From the sequence record PZ543597.1: a stretch of DNA of 64,000 nucleotides, one strand, 5' to 3'. Position 1 is the first letter of the stretch. Each line of letters opens with the position of its first letter. The stretch comes from a phage. This document shows positions 2,630 to 55,405 of this stretch, in pieces. The translations under genes and the position numbers were made by a program. Below the pieces are notes generated by a model. It saw only the letters and a list, made by a program, of their open reading frames with translations. It was not told where the DNA came from and did not search any database.

Positions 2630-4687
2630 ATGGAACTTATTACAGAATTATTTGACGGCGCTTCGGCGCCGGTTGTTAACTTAAATCCTAAGCATAAAAT
2701 ACCTCAAATTTTTGCTATTCAAGCCGGTGAAGAAAGCGTGCTTCCTGGATTTAGATTTTGTACATACACCTCTGGTGGTGATACAAATAAAAACGTTAAG
2801 CCAGGCGATAAAATGATGCATATCGTAATGATAGGTGTTAATGAGAAACTATCATTAGTTAAACTTAGAAACTTGGGTGGAAATCCAATTGGTGTCATTA
2901 ATGCCGTTTTTGATACTGCTCTTCAAACAATGAAACAATATAAAATTGACGCATGCTTATTCCGCGTACTAAAGAGTAAAACAAATGGTGCAGCTCGTCA
3001 AATGCAAGTTATTGCCGACCGTTTAGTACGTACTAAAGGAGCAGGTCGATATGTTCTTTTAAAGGAAATCTGGGATTACGATAAAAAGTACGCATATATT
3101 ATGGTTTACCGTAAAAATGCCAATTTAGAAGACATTCCAGGTGTACCTCCTATTTCAACTGAGTTATTCACAAAAGTTGAATCAAAGGTTGGCGATGTTT
3201 ATGTAGATGTTAAAACGGGTAATGCTGTTCCTAAAGCTGTCGCTGTTGCCGCTTCTATTGCTTTAGAAAATGATAAGCGCACGGATCAAGCTGTTATTCA
3301 GAAAACTAAAATTAGTCGTCGATTAGCAGCACAAGCTCAATATTCTACTGTCGATGCTTCACTTCAGGGTGATAGCTTCGCTGCTAAGAAATATCAAGAG
3401 TTTGAATCTAAAGTTCCGGTATATAAAGCAGAAGGATCAATGAATTCTGGCGTTATTCAGATTGGTTCAAACTTCAGCAAAGGAGCTATCGGTGGTATGA
3501 GAAGTGCTTCTCGTTTTAAATCTAACGATTATGAACTAGAAAGCTTCCGAAATCATATTGCATTGGCCCATGCACGTTTACGTGATCCATCTATTAAGTT
3601 ACAGAGCGATATAACATATCAAGGTTCTCAGGAATATTTAAAGAATAAAGAATTTTTTGATTATAAAACTGATAAAATTTTAAGCGATCTTGCTGACATT
3701 AATATTTCTAATAGCTTTGATGTTATTAAGAAAATTATCAATGATTTAGTTAAAGGTTCTAAAGCCACGCCAGACGAAAAGGTAGCTATTATTCAATTTG
3801 TCATGAATGGCATTTATAAATTGATTAATGAATCTGCTGCTCAGGCATATGAATACGCAAGCACCGAAGTAACTCCAAAAGGATTAACTCAGGCTGAGTC
3901 TGATGTAATTGAAGATTATTGTGCAGATTCATATGTTGAAATGAACTCATTCCTCTTGGGTAAACCAGATTCTACCCGTGAAGAATATATGGAACGAGCT
4001 ATTAAACACATCGAGACAATGGATTCTGCCTTTGCCAAAGGTTCAGTTCTTCCTCCAGGAACTACGCTTTATCGTGGACAAGAAGTTACCTTTAAAACTT
4101 TACGTCATAATATTGAAAATAAAATGTTCTATTTCAAGAACTTCGTATCCACATCACTTAAACCAAATATCTTCGGTGAGCATGGTAAAAACTATATGGC
4201 TCTAGATGATTCCGGTGCAGTATTTTCTGGTGAAGGAGAAGGTTCAGTTGACGCAGAAGATTTGATGCATATGGGCAGTCACTCTGCTTATGCGAATGAA
4301 GATGCTGAAACTAGCGTGGGTATGGTAATTAAAGGAGCTGAGCGAATCAAAGTTATCGTTCCAGGTCATTTATCAGGATTTCCATCAGAAGCTGAAGTTA
4401 TTTTACCGCGTGGAATTTTGCTGAAGATTAATAAAGTGAGTACGTACATGATGAAAGAAACTGCTTATAACAAGTATCTAATCGAAGGCACAATCGTTCC
4501 TCCTTCTGAACAATTAGAAGAATCGGTATATGATGGCGACCATCTAATGGAAACTGGTGAAGTTCGTCCAATGGCTGGATTTAATCAATTCCTTGTAGAA
4601 GAATCAAAAGAAGAGGAAAACGAAGTTTCTCAAATCTTGGCTTCTTTGGTTAACATCAACGGAATGTCTAAAAAGTTCAAAATGTAG
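2630..4687 (+). CDS. Alt paralogue, ADP-ribosyltransferase with divergent central region
   Basis: 685-aa ORF 3 nt after alt; shares N-terminus (MELITELFD, CTYTSGGDTN, KQYKIDAC, GRYVLLKE) and C-terminal motifs (TLYRGQ, NFVSTSL, EAEVILPRG); residues ~230-400 unrelated to copy 1. Confidence 0.85.
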   Translation: MELITELFDGASAPVVNLNPKHKIPQIFAIQAGEESVLPGFRFCTYTSGGDTNKNVKPGDKMMHIVMIGVNEKLSLVKLRNLGGNPIGVINAVFDTALQTMKQYKIDACLFRVLKSKTNGAARQMQVIADRLVRTKGAGRYVLLKEIWDYDKKYAYIMVYRKNANLEDIPGVPPISTELFTKVESKVGDVYVDVKTGNAVPKAVAVAASIALENDKRTDQAVIQKTKISRRLAAQAQYSTVDASLQGDSFAAKKYQEFESKVPVYKAEGSMNSGVIQIGSNFSKGAIGGMRSASRFKSNDYELESFRNHIALAHARLRDPSIKLQSDITYQGSQEYLKNKEFFDYKTDKILSDLADINISNSFDVIKKIINDLVKGSKATPDEKVAIIQFVMNGIYKLINESAAQAYEYASTEVTPKGLTQAESDVIEDYCADSYVEMNSFLLGKPDSTREEYMERAIKHIETMDSAFAKGSVLPPGTTLYRGQEVTFKTLRHNIENKMFYFKNFVSTSLKPNIFGEHGKNYMALDDSGAVFSGEGEGSVDAEDLMHMGSHSAYANEDAETSVGMVIKGAERIKVIVPGHLSGFPSEAEVILPRGILLKINKVSTYMMKETAYNKYLIEGTIVPPSEQLEESVYDGDHLMETGEVRPMAGFNQFLVEESKEEENEVSQILASLVNINGMSKKFKM

Positions 4688-15844: not shown

Positions 15845-17263
15845 ATGGCTTTTACAGTTGATATAACTCCTAAAACACCTACTGGAGTTATAGATCAGAC
15901 TCAGCAGTTTACTGCTACACCCAGTGGTCAAACTGGAGATGGACCTATTACATATGCTTGGACTGTAGATGATGTTCCACAGGAAGAAACATCTGCAACT
16001 TTTAGTTATGTACTAAAAGGACCTGCCGGTCAAAAAACTATTAAAGTAGTTGCAACAAACCCAGTTCCAGATACTGATGCTGAAACAGCTGAAATTAGTA
16101 CAACTATCACAGTTCAAAATAAGACACAGACAACTACCTTAGCTGTAACTCCTAATAGTCCTCCAGAAGGAGTAATCGGAACAGCTGTTGAATTTACTGC
16201 TGCCTTAGCTTCACAGCCATCGGGCGCATCTGCTACGTATCAATGGTACGTTGACGGTTCTCCTGTGAGCGAAGCAACTTCTGCTACATTCAATTATACT
16301 CCTACTACAAGCGGAGTTAAAACAATTAAGTGTGTAGCTCAAGTAACCGCGGCAGATTATGATACAAAGGAAGTTACTTCTAATGAAGTGTCACTGACTG
16401 TTAATAAAAAGACGCAGACAACTACCTTGGCAGTAACTCCTGATAGTCCTGCTGCTGGAGTAATTGGAACCCCGGTTCAATTTACTGCTGCCTTAGCTTC
16501 TCAACCTGATGGAGCGTCTGCCACGTATCAGTGGTATGTAGATGATTCACAAGTTGGTGGAGAAACTAACTCTACATTTAACTATACTCCAACTACAAGT
16601 GGAGTAAAAAGAATTAAATGCGTAGCCCAAGTAACTGCAGAAAATTATAATGAAAAGGAAGTTACTTCCAATGAAGTATCATTGACAGTTAATAAGAAGA
16701 CAATGAATCCACAGGTTGCATTGACTCCTCCTTCTATTAATGTTCAGCAAGATGCTTCGGCTACATTTACTGCTAATGTTACTGGCGCACCTGAAGCAGC
16801 ACAAATTACTTACTCATGGAAGAAAGATTCTTCTCCTGTGGAAGGGTCAACTAACGTATATACTGTTGATACCTCATCTATTGGAAGTCAAACTATTGAA
16901 GTTACTGCTGTCGTTACAGCAACTGACTATGATAGTAAAACAGTTAAAGCCACAGGTCAAGTTCAAGTGACTGATAAAGTTGCTCCGGAACCAGAAGGTG
17001 AATTACCTTATGTTCATCCTCTTCCACATCGTAGCTCAGCTTATATCTGGTGCGGTTGGTGGGTTATGGATGAAATCCAAAAAATGACTGAAGAAGGTAA
17101 AGATTGGAAAACTGAAGATCCAGATAGTAAATACTACTTGCATCGTTACACTCTTCAGAAGATGATGAAAGACTATCCAGAAGTTGATGTTCAAGAATCG
17201 CGTAATGGATACATCATTCATAAAACTGCTTTAGAAACTGGTATCATCTATACCTATCCATAA
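15845..17263 (+). CDS. hoc: Hoc outer capsid decoration protein with an extra Ig-like domain
   Basis: 472-aa ORF; N-terminus MAFTVDITPKTPTGVIDQTQQF and C-terminal capsid-binding region (PYVHPLPHRSSAYIWCGWWVMDEIQK) match T4 Hoc as recalled; contains two tandem ~96-aa Ig-like repeats. Confidence 0.85.
   Translation: MAFTVDITPKTPTGVIDQTQQFTATPSGQTGDGPITYAWTVDDVPQEETSATFSYVLKGPAGQKTIKVVATNPVPDTDAETAEISTTITVQNKTQTTTLAVTPNSPPEGVIGTAVEFTAALASQPSGASATYQWYVDGSPVSEATSATFNYTPTTSGVKTIKCVAQVTAADYDTKEVTSNEVSLTVNKKTQTTTLAVTPDSPAAGVIGTPVQFTAALASQPDGASATYQWYVDDSQVGGETNSTFNYTPTTSGVKRIKCVAQVTAENYNEKEVTSNEVSLTVNKKTMNPQVALTPPSINVQQDASATFTANVTGAPEAAQITYSWKKDSSPVEGSTNVYTVDTSSIGSQTIEVTAVVTATDYDSKTVKATGQVQVTDKVAPEPEGELPYVHPLPHRSSAYIWCGWWVMDEIQKMTEEGKDWKTEDPDSKYYLHRYTLQKMMKDYPEVDVQESRNGYIIHKTALETGIIYTYP
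16124..16699 (+). repeat. tandem duplication (2 x 288 bp) encoding two Ig-like domains within hoc
   Basis: aa repeats TQTTTLAVTP(N/D)SP...ASATYQWYVD...FNYTPTTSGVK(T/R)IKCVAQVTA...EVTSNEVSLTVNKK at 16124-16411 and 16412-16699. Confidence 0.85.
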
Positions 17264-39574: not shown

Positions 39575-40579
39575 TTAAAATGTAAACAGAATATTGATTT
39601 CTTCTGTCTGATCCATTGCCATGATAATAGGTGGCCTATTTTCCATATAAATCATTTCGCCCGAATGCCTCATTAAATCTTCTGGATCATAATAATCCTT
39701 TTCAGCTTTAACATTTGGGTCATTTGGATGAGCTTTAGCTTCAAGAGGATTTGTGATTATTGATATTTGTCTAAATCCTTTATTTCCTGGCAATGCAGCA
39801 TCAGGAAAGTAAACTGAATCTAAATATGCTTTAAAACGGATAGTATTTGCCTTAACCCGGTAAATTAATCCAAAATCATCTTGTTGCCAAGTGAGATTAT
39901 CTTCATACCCCCATCTAGTTGGGTCTTCTTTTAATTCCTCAGGCCAAGGAACTACGATATATTCATTTGTGCATCTATTTATAGATACATCGGGCGGAAT
40001 CTCAAAAAGATATTCCCAAACATATCCGTCTCCAGGTTCGATTGTTCCTTCCGCATCTCCTCGACCTTCAGGAGGAGTCATTGACCTAACAGAAGGAGTC
40101 CATTTTCCGCCTAATTTGAGGCATTCATCCTTATTAGTTAAAGATGCTATTGAACACATTCCGGTATCAGGAACATCTAAACAACGATATACTAACCAGC
40201 CTGCGCCTGATTCAGTAGCGTTGTAAGGAGCTGAGTTACACACTACAATATCGTTAATTCTAAATGTGTATGGATCCGGATATCTAGTATCTCCCCAATC
40301 TCTGCGAGGAATAACAGCATCAAGCATTGATGGAAGAACTTTTACTGTTCCCATCATATGCGTCCACATGTCAGTTACGCCTAATACAGAATCGGTTGGA
40401 TAAGGTGGGGCAAAGCCCACCTCATTTTCATTTGATGACCACGGTTCTGATCTTCCAAATGTGATAAAGATAGTGTTTTTATCCGGACCACTTCCAATTG
40501 AATTATAAAAATTCAGCATTTTTTCTGTTCTAAATTTTGAAGTAACTATCGCACGATAGATAACACTTGAATCATTCAT
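39575..40579 (-). CDS. 8: baseplate wedge protein gp8
   Basis: 334-aa ORF, order as T4. Confidence 0.9.
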   Translation of the reverse strand: MNDSSVIYRAIVTSKFRTEKMLNFYNSIGSGPDKNTIFITFGRSEPWSSNENEVGFAPPYPTDSVLGVTDMWTHMMGTVKVLPSMLDAVIPRRDWGDTRYPDPYTFRINDIVVCNSAPYNATESGAGWLVYRCLDVPDTGMCSIASLTNKDECLKLGGKWTPSVRSMTPPEGRGDAEGTIEPGDGYVWEYLFEIPPDVSINRCTNEYIVVPWPEELKEDPTRWGYEDNLTWQQDDFGLIYRVKANTIRFKAYLDSVYFPDAALPGNKGFRQISIITNPLEAKAHPNDPNVKAEKDYYDPEDLMRHSGEMIYMENRPPIIMAMDQTEEINILFTF

Positions 40580-42212
40580 CTATTTTAACCTGTGTTGGAT
40601 TTTCAGGGTCTCTTGGATTTCCTATATTATCTTTTAGACGTTTATTAACTAAATCCCTAAATTGCGCAAATGTTGTTCCAGAAGCATCAAATAGGGGACT
40701 CATTAATTTACGTCGTTCAGACGGCAATTGACCTTGAAATATTGAATTATTATTTTCAGCATTATAGTCATCAGGAAGAGGATATTCTACACCAGCCATT
40801 GGGCCAGGCTCATAAATTGCTTCGCCTGTTACTGAATCATACTCAATTTCACCGGTTGGAGTTAATTTAGCTACTCTATCAGCATATTCAGTAGGCAATC
40901 CAGAATCCCATTTATAGTTTTTGTATTTATTAATTATAGTCTCTGTATGTTTAAGAGTTAAACCAACATTAATAAACATCGTTAAAAGGGTAATTGCTAT
41001 AAATCCAAATCCTACTGGATGAACAAAACGAATAACGTCAGATTTCCAGCGGGAAGAAGGTAAATTGGATTTAATTTTCATTACATAGTATGATCTACTT
41101 CTATTAATATAGTCTATATTGTTTTGAAGCAAATCCTTTCCTTTAACTCCACGAATAATTTCGCCTTCAAAACTAGGGAGTCTTTCTGCTTTAACTTCTT
41201 GACCAGCAATTAATCTTCCCAAAAGATTATGAATAGTTACGGTCCATTGCAATTTACCATTAGAATAACTTCTTTCTATATAAGTAACATTACATCTTCC
41301 TGTGGCTGTATAAATCGTTTGTCCTACTAAATCTTCAGTCAAAGAATCAGATTGAACGATTATGTCATATTCAGTACCAGCCCCAGATTCAATTTCAATT
41401 TCAACTTCTTCATTATAAAGAACTTTAAAAAGAAATTTGTATGATGCTTCAATTCCTTTAGTAGAATAAAAATCATAACTACGTGATTCAAAAAATCTTG
41501 CAACAGCATCACGTTTGTCAGCATTTAAATAAATGTTTCTTTTATATATCTCTGACCACAAATATTCCCACGCATGCTCTTCTCGTGGATACTGATTACG
41601 AATTAAATTTCGTAAATTATTATACTGAGTTCCGTATCCGTCAGAAAGATATTGAATATATGCTTCACAAAATGCCTCAAAATTCGAATCCTGCAACAAA
41701 TAAGAATCAGGCATCATTGTGCCAATTAATGGTCTTAAATCAGGGTCAGCTAATCCATGCTCTTCTTCTGGCGACCAAGGAGTCTCATGCTCTTGGTTTT
41801 GTAAAAATGCTTTTAAAAATACTCCAGTCGGCTTCCAAATAATTTCTACTGTATCTCTCACACGATAGTTAAAATCATAATAAGAAATTATTTCACCAGA
41901 AGATTTATAAAAAAGCATCCCAGACGCATATTTTTTAAATCCCGTGAATTTAACATTTGGCATTACTATCGTACAATCACCATCATCCCAGTATTCATGA
42001 ACTAATCTATCTGGTGATGTTTCCGGAATATTTTCTATAACTTTAGTGTATTTTAAATCAGCATAAACTACTACAGCTCTATTAGAGTTGTTTATCCAGC
42101 ACCGTGTATTAGACTTTTTAGACCAGTTAAAGAATGGTTCTGCATAGTATTTCATTGGCTGAGGCGTAAAAGTTTCCCAATCAGACTTTTCATCTGCTAT
42201 AAATGCCATCAT
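40572..42212 (-). pseudogene. 7: baseplate wedge gp7, C-terminal fragment (downstream part of a gene split by a 169-bp tandem duplication)
   Basis: 546-aa ORF starting MMAFIADEKSDWETF..., the same residues that end the upstream fragment; removing one repeat copy restores a single 1032-aa reading frame. Confidence 0.8.
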
Positions 42213-42400
42213 ATGATAATGCTTATCAGCTATAAACTACTACAGCTCTATTAGAGTTGTTTATCCAGCACCGTGTATTAGACTTTTTAGACCAGTTAAA
42301 GAATGGTTCTGCATAGTATTTCATTGGCTGAGGCGTAAAAGTTTCCCAATCAGACTTTTCATCTGCTATAAATGCCATCATATGATAATGCTTATCAGCT
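42063..42400. repeat. perfect direct tandem duplication, 2 x 169 bp, inside gene 7
   Basis: 42063-42231 and 42232-42400 are identical by inspection (ataaactactacagctctattagag...gataatgcttatcagct); unit length not a multiple of 3. Confidence 0.9.
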
Positions 42401-43839
42401 AACCATTCACGAGGAAATTCATATTTAACGGCACCGATTAACTGATATTTTGCTACAGTTTCAGGGTCATTAACAACGTTATCATTTAAAAATTTAAAAT
42501 TACTCGAAGATAGAGAAACTAATTTACCATCAGTTGACATATTCGCATACCCAGGTTGAATACGTCTTCTTTCTTCTTCAGTGTTGCCAAAAACTCTTTT
42601 CCACGTTTTTGTGTCATGATTTAAAACATATATTCCTTTATCAGTAGAATCAATTATTTTTGACGTTCTAGGATTAGCATTTAATGTTTCAACTTCACCG
42701 ATAATAAGAGCAAAAACTTTATCACCAATAGAATCCATTTTATAGCATACTGCTTTAGGATTTCCAGTTATAGTCATTGTATCAGGTTCAAATAGCCTTT
42801 CCGAATATGTTGGAGATAATGGATCAGAATCTATAGGTGCATTGCTCGTTTTTATATATCTAACTTTATCTCTGGCAACAACATAGATATAATCATCCGT
42901 ACAAGTAATGGCTTCAGCTATACGATATACATTCGCTGGTAAAGTCGCATAAGTACCAAAGATTTCTACATCAAATCCTAAATGTAACTGGTCGCCAAGT
43001 TTAGCAAATGTTATATCCTGCGAACTGAATCTGACATCATCTGCTGACCATCTAACGTCAGTCGATTTACGGCCATAGAAAATCTTGTCGTATCCTAGAA
43101 CGTATGTTGTGTTCGCAGATTGGTAATATACTGTCTTAGATAAAGGATATCCTACACGGTCATTGAAGAGCTTTACGGCTTTCCAGGTTTGTCCTTTATC
43201 ATTGGATACTTTAACTACAGGTTGATAGCGCTCAAAAAGATATAGAATTCCTTCTGATTCCATCAAATAAACTCGGTTAATATCCTTACATACTTGCTGA
43301 ATAGAACCTTGTATTTCATGATACTCATTTTCACCAATAATAAAATTACTTATTGATGAAACATCAACATACGATGGGCTGAATTGAAATGATTCATTCA
43401 TCAATGCAGCCATTATAGTGTCATTGTTAAAATTAACATAATCAGAATTATTAAGAGTAAATTTTTCCTGAATGAATTTATTGGCTAATTGCATTTCAAT
43501 CATGTTTTGAAATGTATAAGCATTTGTAGCAAAAGTTTCAAACTCTTCGGTATAAATCCAATCAGACTGCTCAAAATCTTGCGCAGCTGTAGCTACTCTG
43601 ATAATGTATGATGTCAATGGGTCAGCATCATCAAAAAAGAAGCTGTTATTTGCAGTATATCCTAAGTTAATCCATCTGTATTGATTACTCGGGAGATTTT
43701 CCCCCGAGTTCGTTTTTGTCTCAGCGATTTCTACAAAATAGTAGAAATTAGCACCAACGTCATCCCAGCGTACTTGCACCTGATTTGCGGATAACTTGGA
43801 AATTCTGAGACTAGTGACTGAAGGTGCTTTTACTGTCAT
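42226..43839 (-). pseudogene. 7: baseplate wedge gp7, N-terminal fragment (terminates just inside the second repeat copy)
   Basis: 537-aa ORF; its C-terminal ~56 aa are encoded by repeat copy 2 and it stops 5 nt into copy 1. Confidence 0.8.
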
Positions 43840-45818
43840 TGTGATATAGGCTCCAAATCGATAGTTAAGTATTGTGGACGTAAGTCATTTTCAAATACAA
43901 TCAGTGAACCGTCGCGAGTAAAGATAACATCATCGGTTGGGTCAGAATATAATTCGATGGTCTGAACTTCAAATTTTTCAGATGTTAAATTAATTTTAGC
44001 GATATTCCAATAAATCACATCAGCTGGATAATTTATTTCACCGATAACATAGTATTTGTCGCGTCCATCAGAATTTGCTAATTTGTTAAAATCGTTGCCT
44101 GTATATGGCTGAATGTTTTCATTTTCTGTAACATCGCCAGAAGCAAATGGACCAATAATAACTTTACCAATTCCTTTAGAATCTCGGTCTGTTGATACTA
44201 TGCGAACGTCATATAATACATCTTCTTCTAAACCAGTATCAGGATTTACAACCTTTCGTCCAGAATTAAATGAAAACGTATTAGATTCCATAGAACGATC
44301 TTTTATTTGATTATTGTATTTAATACCTGCTTCAGGCGTTTTATAGAAGTTTTGTACTTCACGAACAATTTGAATTGTCGCTGATGAGCCAATGATAGAA
44401 TGATCTGCATCATCTACATATGTCAACATCTTAGATTTAGCGAAAGATGAATTAAAAATTTCTACGTCTTCGGTATAATAACGATCAATTTTATCAATTA
44501 TTTGACCTTCGAGCCACTGTTCGGATTCTTGCAGCTTATTTAAAGCATATGTGACTTTTAAATTAGTCTTAATAAAAAGATAATTAGGAGAAATAATTGA
44601 TGGCGTAATAGGAGCTAAATTATAGTCTTTGAGATAATTTTTAATATCTTCACGCTGTACAGTAGTTAAATACAGACCTGATTTAGGTTTAGCAGCAATA
44701 AATGCATAACCAGGTTTAGTAGAATCAGTGAAAGTCTGAACTGCTTGAATAATAGAACCAAATCTCTCTGAAACGAATGTATCATAGTCAGTCGCAGTTA
44801 CGCAGCGTTGCTGGGTTTCGCGTTTAATAGTACCCAATTCGCGGATACGCTCAATATCTTCTGGATCACCGCCGCCATCTGCCCCAACAAAATCTGGGTC
44901 ATCGTTTGGATTTTCATTAATATTGATGACAGTTATATTTGTTAATGTATCTGCGTATGAAAATCCGACTGCTCCGTTCGCGTCAGCACCATTAGTACTG
45001 ATGTACTCAATAACAATCGTAGAGTTCTGAGTAGGTTTAAGACCTCCGATATAATTAGCGGTCAAAGCTCCTTCAGAAGCATTAACAGAAATTTCACCTT
45101 CACCAAAATAGAATTCAGTATTTCCATCAATAGTTTCACGCATGTAGTAAATTGTCGATGTAGAACCAGCATGAACCATTGACTTTCTTGTCCAGTTAAT
45201 CCATTCTGCTCCATCAACGTATAATTTAACCTGGTTTCTATCAATATTTTTATCATAAATGATAATAGGTGTTAATTTATCATAAATGATTTCAGTTCTT
45301 ACTATACGTCCCTGGGCCAATTTTAAACGCGGAAAATATTGGTTATTTTTATCACGAATAGCAATAACGTCTTCGGTAGAAACGAAGTTATATGGATTAA
45401 CAGAAGTATCTTTTGCATATGCTAAAAAGCGAGTTCCGCGAGGAATAGTAATGTAATTCCTATTCAATGCGTCGGTGCATGTTAACATAATTTCGGTCTG
45501 CGCAGCGGATTTTGAAGTAGGTAAATATCCGTTATCTTGTGCAGCTTGAACAACTGAACTTCGTAAGTTAGCAGTACGCATAAAGCTTTCATACACAGCA
45601 GCATTACCAAACTGTTGAATGTACAGCGTATTATAAGCCAAAAGGTCGCACAGAACGTTTAATCTTGAGCCTTCAAAATCATAATCCAAAAATTCATTTT
45701 GGCCATTAAGCCATTCAATGAGGTTTTGTTTTATTTCAGCAAATGTACCCCCGACGAATATCTCGGGAATAGCATTTGCTGTTCTTGTTAATTGATAATT
45801 TACAGGGGTATTTGCCAT
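43836..45818 (-). CDS. 6: baseplate wedge protein gp6
   Basis: 660-aa ORF, order as T4. Confidence 0.9.
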   Translation of the reverse strand: MANTPVNYQLTRTANAIPEIFVGGTFAEIKQNLIEWLNGQNEFLDYDFEGSRLNVLCDLLAYNTLYIQQFGNAAVYESFMRTANLRSSVVQAAQDNGYLPTSKSAAQTEIMLTCTDALNRNYITIPRGTRFLAYAKDTSVNPYNFVSTEDVIAIRDKNNQYFPRLKLAQGRIVRTEIIYDKLTPIIIYDKNIDRNQVKLYVDGAEWINWTRKSMVHAGSTSTIYYMRETIDGNTEFYFGEGEISVNASEGALTANYIGGLKPTQNSTIVIEYISTNGADANGAVGFSYADTLTNITVININENPNDDPDFVGADGGGDPEDIERIRELGTIKRETQQRCVTATDYDTFVSERFGSIIQAVQTFTDSTKPGYAFIAAKPKSGLYLTTVQREDIKNYLKDYNLAPITPSIISPNYLFIKTNLKVTYALNKLQESEQWLEGQIIDKIDRYYTEDVEIFNSSFAKSKMLTYVDDADHSIIGSSATIQIVREVQNFYKTPEAGIKYNNQIKDRSMESNTFSFNSGRKVVNPDTGLEEDVLYDVRIVSTDRDSKGIGKVIIGPFASGDVTENENIQPYTGNDFNKLANSDGRDKYYVIGEINYPADVIYWNIAKINLTSEKFEVQTIELYSDPTDDVIFTRDGSLIVFENDLRPQYLTIDLEPISQ

Positions 45819-52372: not shown

Positions 52373-52385
52373 TTTCACAAAGTTG

Positions 52386-53711: not shown

Positions 53712-53784
53712 TGGGAATTAGCCAAGTTGGTAAGGCACTGGATTTTGATTCCAGGATGCAAAGGTTCGAGTCCTTTATTCCCAG
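53712..53784 (+). tRNA. tRNA-Gln (anticodon UUG)
   Basis: acceptor TGGGAAT/ATTCCCA, anticodon loop tTTTGAt, T-loop GGTTCGAGTCC. Confidence 0.85.
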
Positions 53785-53785
53785 C

Positions 53786-53872
53786 GCGAGAATGGCCAAA
53801 TTGGTAAAGGCACAGCACTTAAAATGCTGCGGAATGATTTCCTTGTGGGTTCGAGTCCCACTTCTCGCACCA
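53786..53872 (+). tRNA. tRNA-Leu (anticodon UAA), type II, CCA encoded
   Basis: acceptor GCGAGAA/TTCTCGC, anticodon loop CTTAAAA, long variable arm, 3' ACCA. Confidence 0.85.
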
Positions 53873-53877
53873 AATTT

Positions 53878-53951
<74 letters not shown>

Positions 53952-53961
53952 ATTTAATTTA

Positions 53962-54035
53962 CTCCGTGTAGCTCAGTTTGGTAGAGCGTCTGCTTTGGGA
54001 GCAGAATGTCGTAGGTTCAAATCCTGCCACGGAGA
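53962..54035 (+). tRNA. tRNA-Pro (anticodon UGG)
   Basis: acceptor CTCCGTG/CACGGAG, anticodon loop TTTGGGA, T-loop GGTTCAAATCC. Confidence 0.85.
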
Positions 54036-54037
54036 CT

Positions 54038-54127
54038 GGAGGCGTGGCAGAGTGGTTTAATGCACCGGTCTTGAAAATCGGCAGTCGCTCCGGCGACTCA
54101 TAGGTTCAAATCCTATCGCCTCCGCCA
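54038..54127 (+). tRNA. tRNA-Ser (anticodon UGA), type II, CCA encoded
   Basis: acceptor GGAGGCG/CGCCTCC, anticodon loop CTTGAAA, long variable arm. Confidence 0.85.
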
Positions 54128-54132
54128 GTTTT

Positions 54133-54208
54133 GCTGATTTAGCTCAGTAGGTAGAGCAACTCACTTGTAATGAGAAGGTCGGCGGTTCGATTCCGTCAAT
54201 CAGCACCA
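54133..54208 (+). tRNA. tRNA-Thr (anticodon UGU), CCA encoded
   Basis: acceptor GCTGATT/AATCAGC, anticodon loop CTTGTAA. Confidence 0.85.
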
Positions 54209-54209
54209 A

Positions 54210-54284
54210 GGCCCTGTAGCTGGAAGGTTCAAGCAAGCGACTCATAATCGCCAGATGGTGGTTCAATTCCACCCAGGGCCACCA
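54210..54284 (+). tRNA. tRNA with CAU anticodon (Ile via lysidine, or Met), CCA encoded
   Basis: acceptor GGCCCTG/CAGGGCC, anticodon loop CTCATAA. Confidence 0.8.
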
Positions 54285-54293
54285 AATTAATTT

Positions 54294-54380
54294 GGGGAGT
54301 TATCCCGTAGAGGTAGCGGTGTGGACTGTAAATCCATTGTCATTGCGACTCGGGTGGTTCGACTCCACCACTCCCCACCA
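54294..54380 (+). tRNA. tRNA-Tyr (anticodon GUA), type II, CCA encoded
   Basis: acceptor GGGGAGT/ACTCCCC, anticodon loop CTGTAAA, long variable arm. Confidence 0.8.
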
Positions 54381-54384
54381 ATTT

Positions 54385-54459
54385 GGATGTGTAGCTCAAT
54401 GGCAGAGCGATCGCCTGTTAAGCGATTGGTTATAGGTTCGAATCCTATCACGTCCGCCA
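54385..54459 (+). tRNA. tRNA-Asn (anticodon GUU), CCA encoded
   Basis: acceptor GGATGTG/CACGTCC, anticodon loop CTGTTAA, T-loop GGTTCGAATCC. Confidence 0.8.
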
Positions 54460-54573
54460 AATTTGTGACAACTGTCACATTAATATCTACTTGACGCGAT
54501 TATAGGGGTTGAACTGATCACTCTTCTCTTAATTTCGTGTGAAGACATCTTGATTGTTGGAGTAGGTATTAAT

Positions 54574-54649
54574 GTGGCCGTAGTTCAGTTGGTAGAACTC
54601 GAGATTGTGATTCTCGTAGTCATGGGTTCGACTCCCATCGGTCACCCCA
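54574..54649 (+). tRNA. tRNA-His (anticodon GUG), CCA encoded
   Basis: acceptor GTGGCCG/CGGTCAC, anticodon stem CGAGA/TCTCG with loop TTGTGAT, discriminator C. Confidence 0.75.
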
Positions 54650-54653
54650 ATTA

Positions 54654-54729
54654 CGGGGCATAGCTCAGAAGGAAGAGCAAGGACCTTCTAAGTCCTAGGT
54701 CGTAGGTTCGATCCCTACTGCCTCGACCA
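54654..54729 (+). tRNA. tRNA-Arg (anticodon UCU), CCA encoded
   Basis: acceptor CGGGGCA/TGCCTCG, anticodon loop CTTCTAA, T-loop GGTTCGATCC. Confidence 0.85.
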
Positions 54730-55098: not shown

Positions 55099-55405
55099 GA
55101 AACCGGGTCGCTACCGGTAAGTCGTCGGACTGATGTTCCCTGGAGTATAGTTTCCTCCCACAGTTTTACTGTGTTCTGGCTCTTTACTATCACAGCAGAA
55201 ACGGCGCACCGAATTATCGATTCGAGGAAATATCTTTGCCGTAAGCCGAGTAGCGTTTTTGACGGAACGTTCGGATATGGTCGAGATATGGCCTTTTAAA
55301 AATATTGAGTAGCGTCAACTACTTAATAACCGGGTTCGAATCCCGGCGTTTCGTACAAACACTTGCCTTAGCAGGTGGAACCCCGACAAGGTTGCCGCAA
55401 GGCTT

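Follow-up and report, generated by a model that had tools for sequence, protein, structure and literature searches.

A perfect 169-nt tandem duplication that splits gene 7 in a T4-type phage record, with a record-level artefact as the favoured explanation

Does a T4-type phage carry its baseplate wedge gene 7 in two pieces, or has the gene been broken only in the record that describes it? The question arises from a duplication inside a minus-strand, T4-type gp7 gene lying between the genes for gp6 and gp8. It was met in a stretch of phage DNA of 64,000 nt (record PZ543597.1), which was analysed as a whole and is referred to below as the window. The features on which the argument depends are the following, in window coordinates.

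39575 to 40579, minus strand: gp8, 334 aa, the intact downstream neighbour.
40572 to 42212, minus strand: ORF2, 546 aa, gp7 residues 487-1032, starting at ATG ATG (Met487-Met488).
42063 to 42231, minus strand: copy A of the duplication, nearer the 3' end of the gene and read second by the ribosome (identity run; repeat search, 100%).
42213 to 42225, minus strand: spacer of 13 nt (TAAGCATTATCAT) from the ORF1 stop to the ORF2 start, without a Shine-Dalgarno (SD) sequence.
42226 to 43839, minus strand: ORF1, 537 aa, gp7 residues 1-536, then Ser, then TGA (42228-42226).
42232 to 42400, minus strand: copy B, nearer the 5' end of the gene and read first, in the native frame (identity run, TRF, repeat search).
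43836 to 45818, minus strand: gp6, 660 aa, the intact upstream neighbour.

The duplication itself is unambiguous. In an offset identity run over the 64-kb window, base i equals base i+169 for i from 42063 to 42232. In other words, two 169-nt copies abut head-to-tail at 100% identity and are followed by one further matching base, the A at 42401. TRF reported a period of 169 with 2.0 copies, and a separate repeat search returned 100% identity and no other perfect duplication within the 64 kb. The initial annotation had described two identical, abutting 169-bp copies in gene 7 at 42063-42400 and had allowed that they might prove non-identical on careful alignment; all three approaches agree with the description, and the alignment left the copies 100% identical. 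The repeated unit begins with the third base of gp7 codon 480 and ends with codon 536 (gene coordinates 1440-1608), and the copy-copy junction, marked here by a slash, reads ...GCTTATCAGCT / ATAAACTAC... A perfect tandem repeat of 169 nt cannot have arisen by chance.

The window holds other repeats as well. The Hoc gene (472 aa, 15845-17263, plus strand) contains an old, in-frame 288-nt tandem repeat at 16109-16684 that is 78-79% identical. Unlike the gene 7 repeat, this domain duplication has been retained and has diverged; exactly the same Hoc protein is found in phages ECO07P4 and ECO07P5. Two tandem 685-aa paralogues of the alt-type ADP-ribosyltransferase (569-2626 and 2630-4687, plus strand) share blocks with ~71% nucleotide identity, and phage U115 likewise has two alt-type genes. 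No exact match to either alt protein is present in a collection of 15 billion proteins; in exact look-ups of ten further window proteins, alt1, alt2 and wac were unique to this phage. Short elements are repeated at ~5046, 18854 and 20212, at 55403 and 55960, and at 52385, 52683 and 57148. Among them are hairpins with a GC stem and a GAAA loop (GGGACCGAAAGGTCCC and CCCCGACCGAAAGGTTGGGG), which are terminator-like, and GTTTAC...TACTAT repeats, which resemble T4 early promoters.

Because 169 is not a multiple of three, the duplication breaks the reading frame of gene 7. The TGA that ends ORF1 consists of nucleotides 4-6 of the second copy read, and ORF1 and ORF2 jointly span all 1032 gp7 residues with an overlap of 50 aa and a gap of 13 nt. 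The translations bear out the assignment to gene 7, the ORFs of 537 and 546 aa and the Met-Met restart, all of which had been proposed in the initial annotation. So does the in silico deletion of one copy, which yields the predicted 3099 nt and 1032 aa, with no internal stop and with the length of T4 gp7 in PDB 5HX2. When the repaired protein was compared with T4 gp7 (PDB 5HX2/5IV5, 1032 aa), phmmer aligned residues 1-1032 to residues 1-1032 with E = 0. The gene is thus identified as that of the T4 gp7 baseplate wedge initiator by full-length homology, by three Pfam domains located in ORF2 (Gp7_helical, Gp7_5th and Gp7_6th) and by its position between gp6 and gp8; residues 7-89 of ORF1 additionally give a weak fn3 match. 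A single gp7 chain of ~1030 aa is obtained only once one copy has been removed, the record as written encoding 537 + 546 aa. In the baseplate, gp7 is a monomer present in six copies, and wedge assembly is strictly ordered and requires gp7 (PMC3004832).

All comparisons with relatives point to a duplication that is both young and solitary. The repaired gp7 protein is identical to gp7 of phages U115, a51, fFiEco06 and others, and the repaired gene differs from that of U115 and a51 at 1 nt in 3099. Other close relatives show 7-11 nt differences within the 169-nt unit, as against zero between the two copies here. A single-copy gene of 3099 bp is present in 498 of the 498 Tequatrovirus records that cover gene 7. 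The best 120 gp7 clusters by score, which reach down to 47% identity, are all single chains of 1017-1060 aa. The exact gp6 protein occurs on 24 contigs read (146 index blocks), and gp7 is unsplit in all 10 of the matches listed, the 10 loci being 93.4-99.5% identical over ~20 kb and hence not from this same phage. The junction was not found among 50,697 phage records, complete E. coli genomes, IMG/VR, JGI metagenome contigs and GTDB genomes, and the exact ORF1 and ORF2 proteins had no match in any protein collection looked up. A literature search found no report of a 169-bp gp7 duplication. Relative to U115 there are no frame-breaking indels elsewhere in the 64 kb, so that the gene 7 duplication is the only such lesion, and the remainder of the structural module is intact. 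The duplication is, in short, best explained as one extra piece, gained very recently by a gp7 gene that is intact in all other respects.

As to its wider setting, the window is a unique mosaic Tequatrovirus. The part at ~42.2-57.2 kb is 99% identical to U115 and the rest 94-97%; for the flanks, no record in the phage collection is better than ~97% identical. Eleven tRNA genes at 53712-54729 (plus strand; Gln, Leu, Gly, Pro, Ser, Thr, Met/Ile2 (CAT), Tyr, Asn, His and Arg) equal the set annotated in U115.

Where, then, does the duplication come from? We favour an artefact of the record over a genuine slippage duplication, and put its probability at roughly 0.55; an untrimmed start-end or contig overlap is the kind of origin that we infer. 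Most likely, the duplication is absent from the viable phage. Being circularly permuted, a T4-type genome assembles as a circle, which is then given as a linear contig whose two ends often repeat each other. If this overlap were left untrimmed before rotation or before a contig join, it would end up inside the sequence as a perfect head-to-tail duplication whose position is arbitrary; in this case it would be codons 480-536 of gene 7. Start-end overlaps of 127 bp have been documented for SPAdes (PMC5923482) and bases duplicated at circularisation for long-read assemblers (PMC6966772), and when circular or permuted genomes are assembled, perfect duplications result fairly often from untrimmed overlaps (PMC5923482, PMC6966772). 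The unit of 169 does not coincide with an assembler k-mer (e.g. 127, SPAdes), which leaves overlap-layout and long-read assemblers, with their overlaps of arbitrary length, as candidates.

Several observations support an artefact. There is 100% identity between the copies, none of the relatives or other datasets searched has the duplication, and the repaired gene is within 1 nt of U115 and a51. Neither the ~500 relatives nor the best 120 clusters are split, and no second frame-breaking lesion separates the window from U115. The requirement for gp7 in wedge assembly, the lack of a ribosome-binding site (RBS) before ORF2 and a cut in a confidently predicted beta-rich region (see below) point in the same direction, as do the documented overlap artefacts. 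Finally, homologous recombination is very active in T4, and a lethal direct repeat of 169 bp would be lost quickly.

Other observations count against an artefact. The main one is a 6-mer, GCTGAT, within 1 nt of both breakpoints, and a second is the presence of inverted repeats at both; a random contig-end overlap predicts neither. In addition, none of the common short-read assemblers uses 169 as a default k-mer, and the orientation of the window is opposite to the T4 convention, so that rotation of the record cannot be demonstrated. The 6-mers at issue are these.

42057 to 42062: ATCAGC, coding (minus) strand GCTGAT, the Ala537-Asp538 codons, just outside the duplication.
42394 to 42399: ATCAGC, the Ala481-Asp482 codons (minus strand), within the unit, 1 nt short of its end.

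ATCAGC is also found at 42225-42230, as the duplicated copy of the 6-mer at 42394-42399, and GCTGAT is kept at both breakpoints in the relatives examined. The chance of the same 6-mer lying no more than 1 nt from both breakpoints is 0.004 in a strict test and 0.03 in a liberal one. Inverted repeats (9/10) likewise occur at both breakpoints, at 42063-42095 and 42393-42447 (positional p ~0.003). Together, the 6-mer and the inverted repeats moderately favour a polymerase or recombination event over a random join.

The leading alternative is accordingly a genuine duplication in the sequenced DNA, produced by slippage or template switching, or by T4 short-homology recombination near GCTGAT with a one-base bulge. 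We regard it as possible, though less likely than an artefact. Besides the presence of GCTGAT and of inverted repeats at the two breakpoints, it is favoured by the fact that T4 tandem amplifications form at microhomologies of 2-10 bp, typically 6-10 bp (PMC9391042), and both the identity of the copies and the agreement of the repaired protein with relatives fit a very young event. However, the homology is one base off. In the single-copy sequence the 6-mers are 168 nt apart and hence out of register with the 169-nt unit by one base, so that only 1 nt of homology is in register at the junction and a one-base bulge is needed. Recombination via ATCAGC/GCTGAT would instead give an in-frame duplication of 168 nt with one 6-mer left at the junction. 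The junction microhomology atcagc of the initial annotation therefore holds as regards the 6-mer near both breakpoints but not as regards its register. Hairpin-stalled slippage was considered on account of the inverted repeats and set aside as a weak lead, since the hairpins are thermodynamically insignificant and fold no better than shuffled sequence (z from -1.0 to +0.2). It also counts against a genuine duplication that the junction was found nowhere else in five collections and that a phage with a frameshifted essential gene cannot found a plaque, which makes dominance in a stock hard to see. Given this and the activity of T4 recombination, a genuine duplication could dominate the population only if the split were functional or if the phage stock were unpurified or complemented. 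On this reading the duplication would count as a new loss-of-function mutation of gene 7, or at least a severely crippling one, and would be non-functional and unstable. A defective, complemented or unpurified population would harbour it, and copy-copy recombination would restore the gene. What probability the readings considered here leave over goes to other origins, such as an in-vitro chimera or a minority variant captured by the assembler.

Might the split instead be functional? A viable two-piece gp7 would consist of fragments 1-536 and 487-1032, the latter made by termination-reinitiation 13 nt past the TGA. The duplication would then be real and fixed, and the halves would rejoin non-covalently via the duplicated beta segment of ~50 residues. 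We consider this highly improbable. In its favour, none of the 1032 residues is missing from the two ORFs, which overlap by 50 aa and leave a gap of 13 nt, and nothing else in the structural module is broken. Nonetheless, such a layout is easily obtained. When out-of-frame duplications of 100-300 nt were placed in gene 7 in a simulation, 75% of them gave two ORFs jointly covering gp7, and in 13% these two ORFs also lay -10 to +20 nt apart; the tidy arrangement is therefore unremarkable. ORF2 has no Shine-Dalgarno sequence, and its upstream region forms an anti-SD duplex of -0.7 kcal/mol, as compared with -2.8 to -10.8 at 28 bona fide late-gene starts in the window. This energy is typical of background internal ATGs, and ORF2 would be expressible by termination-reinitiation only. 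Moreover, no sequence divergence has followed the split, and no split gp7 recurs among the ~500 relatives, the best 120 gp7 clusters or the 10 listed loci with identical gp6.

The predicted fold bears on a two-piece protein as well. An AlphaFold model was built from 41 homologues, the first row of which is 97% identical and has the same numbering. In this model, residues 290-630 form a continuous beta-rich region (pLDDT 66-93), and residues 480-536 correspond to six strands inside it. Residues 487 and 536 both fall within this region, with a mild pLDDT dip to 66-70 at 471-490. Clear low-confidence linkers are predicted at residues 264-282 and 632-688, and the cut appears to lie away from both, which may count against a viable two-piece gp7. 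Foldseek placed 5hx2_A (T4 gp7) at the top and beta-propeller proteins next; the matches of the central region are to the propellers of ROS1/Sevenless, DDB1 and WD40 proteins. Residues 212-219 (ORF1, minus strand) carry an Asp-box/BNR-like motif, SNDKGQTW. A literature search for a published description of a gp7 propeller found nothing useful.

Programmed recoding, in which a +1 frameshift or a ribosome hop across the junction would yield gp7 with a 56-residue insertion, can be dismissed. T4 gene 60, the classic case of translational bypassing, offers a precedent, and the frame would be regained if the ribosome moved by +1 at some point after the TAG TAG codons of the +1 frame and before the TGA. 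However, the only window that allows such a shift, GUU UAU AGC UGA, has no slippery site before the stop, and none of its codons would let a tRNA re-pair in the +1 frame. Nothing SD-like lies upstream that could act as a stimulator, and the feature is conserved nowhere.

We thus see no sign of adaptation to being split. The unique junction, the lack of an RBS and of a slippery site, the cut in a folded region and a layout shared by 13% of random duplications mark a one-off lesion, and the duplication is very probably not an evolved split gene. With no RBS, no unusual layout and no precedent, a functional split gene was rejected as the main reading. The initial annotation had left three options side by side, namely an inactivating or split-gene event, heterogeneity in the population and an assembly artefact. 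Of these it is the artefact that we favour, and we find no evidence for a functional split gene.

The importance of the finding lies mainly in quality control. Taken at face value, the record would make annotation pipelines list two proteins as 'baseplate wedge', and a spurious split or pseudogenised essential gene could enter comparative studies. Were the duplication genuine, it would give a rare direct view of T4-type slippage making an out-of-frame intragenic duplication, and were the phage also viable, gp7 would tolerate fission; both are so far unsupported. It is tempting to add that a true two-piece gp7 would capture gene fission in nature, caused by an out-of-frame tandem duplication in the gene for an essential virion protein, although the odds are heavily against it.

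How does the gene 7 locus compare with known systems? Natural split genes exist in T-even phages, e.g. topoisomerase genes 39 and 60; in these the split is conserved from phage to phage, and translation signals are present for each ORF separately. The locus resembles them in having one function spread over two adjacent ORFs, but its split is not conserved and ORF2 has no such signals. With the tail fibre gene of Enterococcus phage EfV12-phi1 (PMC6365445) and the Hoc repeat of this window it shares an intragenic tandem duplication in a virion gene. Those repeats, however, are in frame and retained by selection (that of Hoc has diverged to 78%), whereas the gene 7 duplication is out of frame and shows zero divergence. 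Also comparable are the T4 duplications and segmental amplifications formed at short homologies (rII duplications, Hp17 gene 16-18 and dmd-tifA amplifications), which likewise are head-to-tail repeats with, as here, a 6-bp repeat adjoining both breakpoints in a T4-type genome (PMC9391042). Nevertheless, the known T4 amplifications span whole genes, are selected for dosage and have 2-10 bp of boundary homology, exactly one copy of which is left at the junction (PMC9391042). The gene 7 duplication is 169 bp long, intragenic, frame-shifting, one base off register with 1 nt of homology, and of no evident benefit. Contig-end overlap artefacts also differ from it in some respects: its unit of 169 is not a standard k-mer, its internal position means that a rotation or a contig join has to be assumed as well, and a 6-mer near the junction is unexpected for a random overlap. 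What they have in common with it is a perfect direct duplication at an arbitrary position, confined to one record and breaking the gene that it hits (PMC5923482, PMC6966772).
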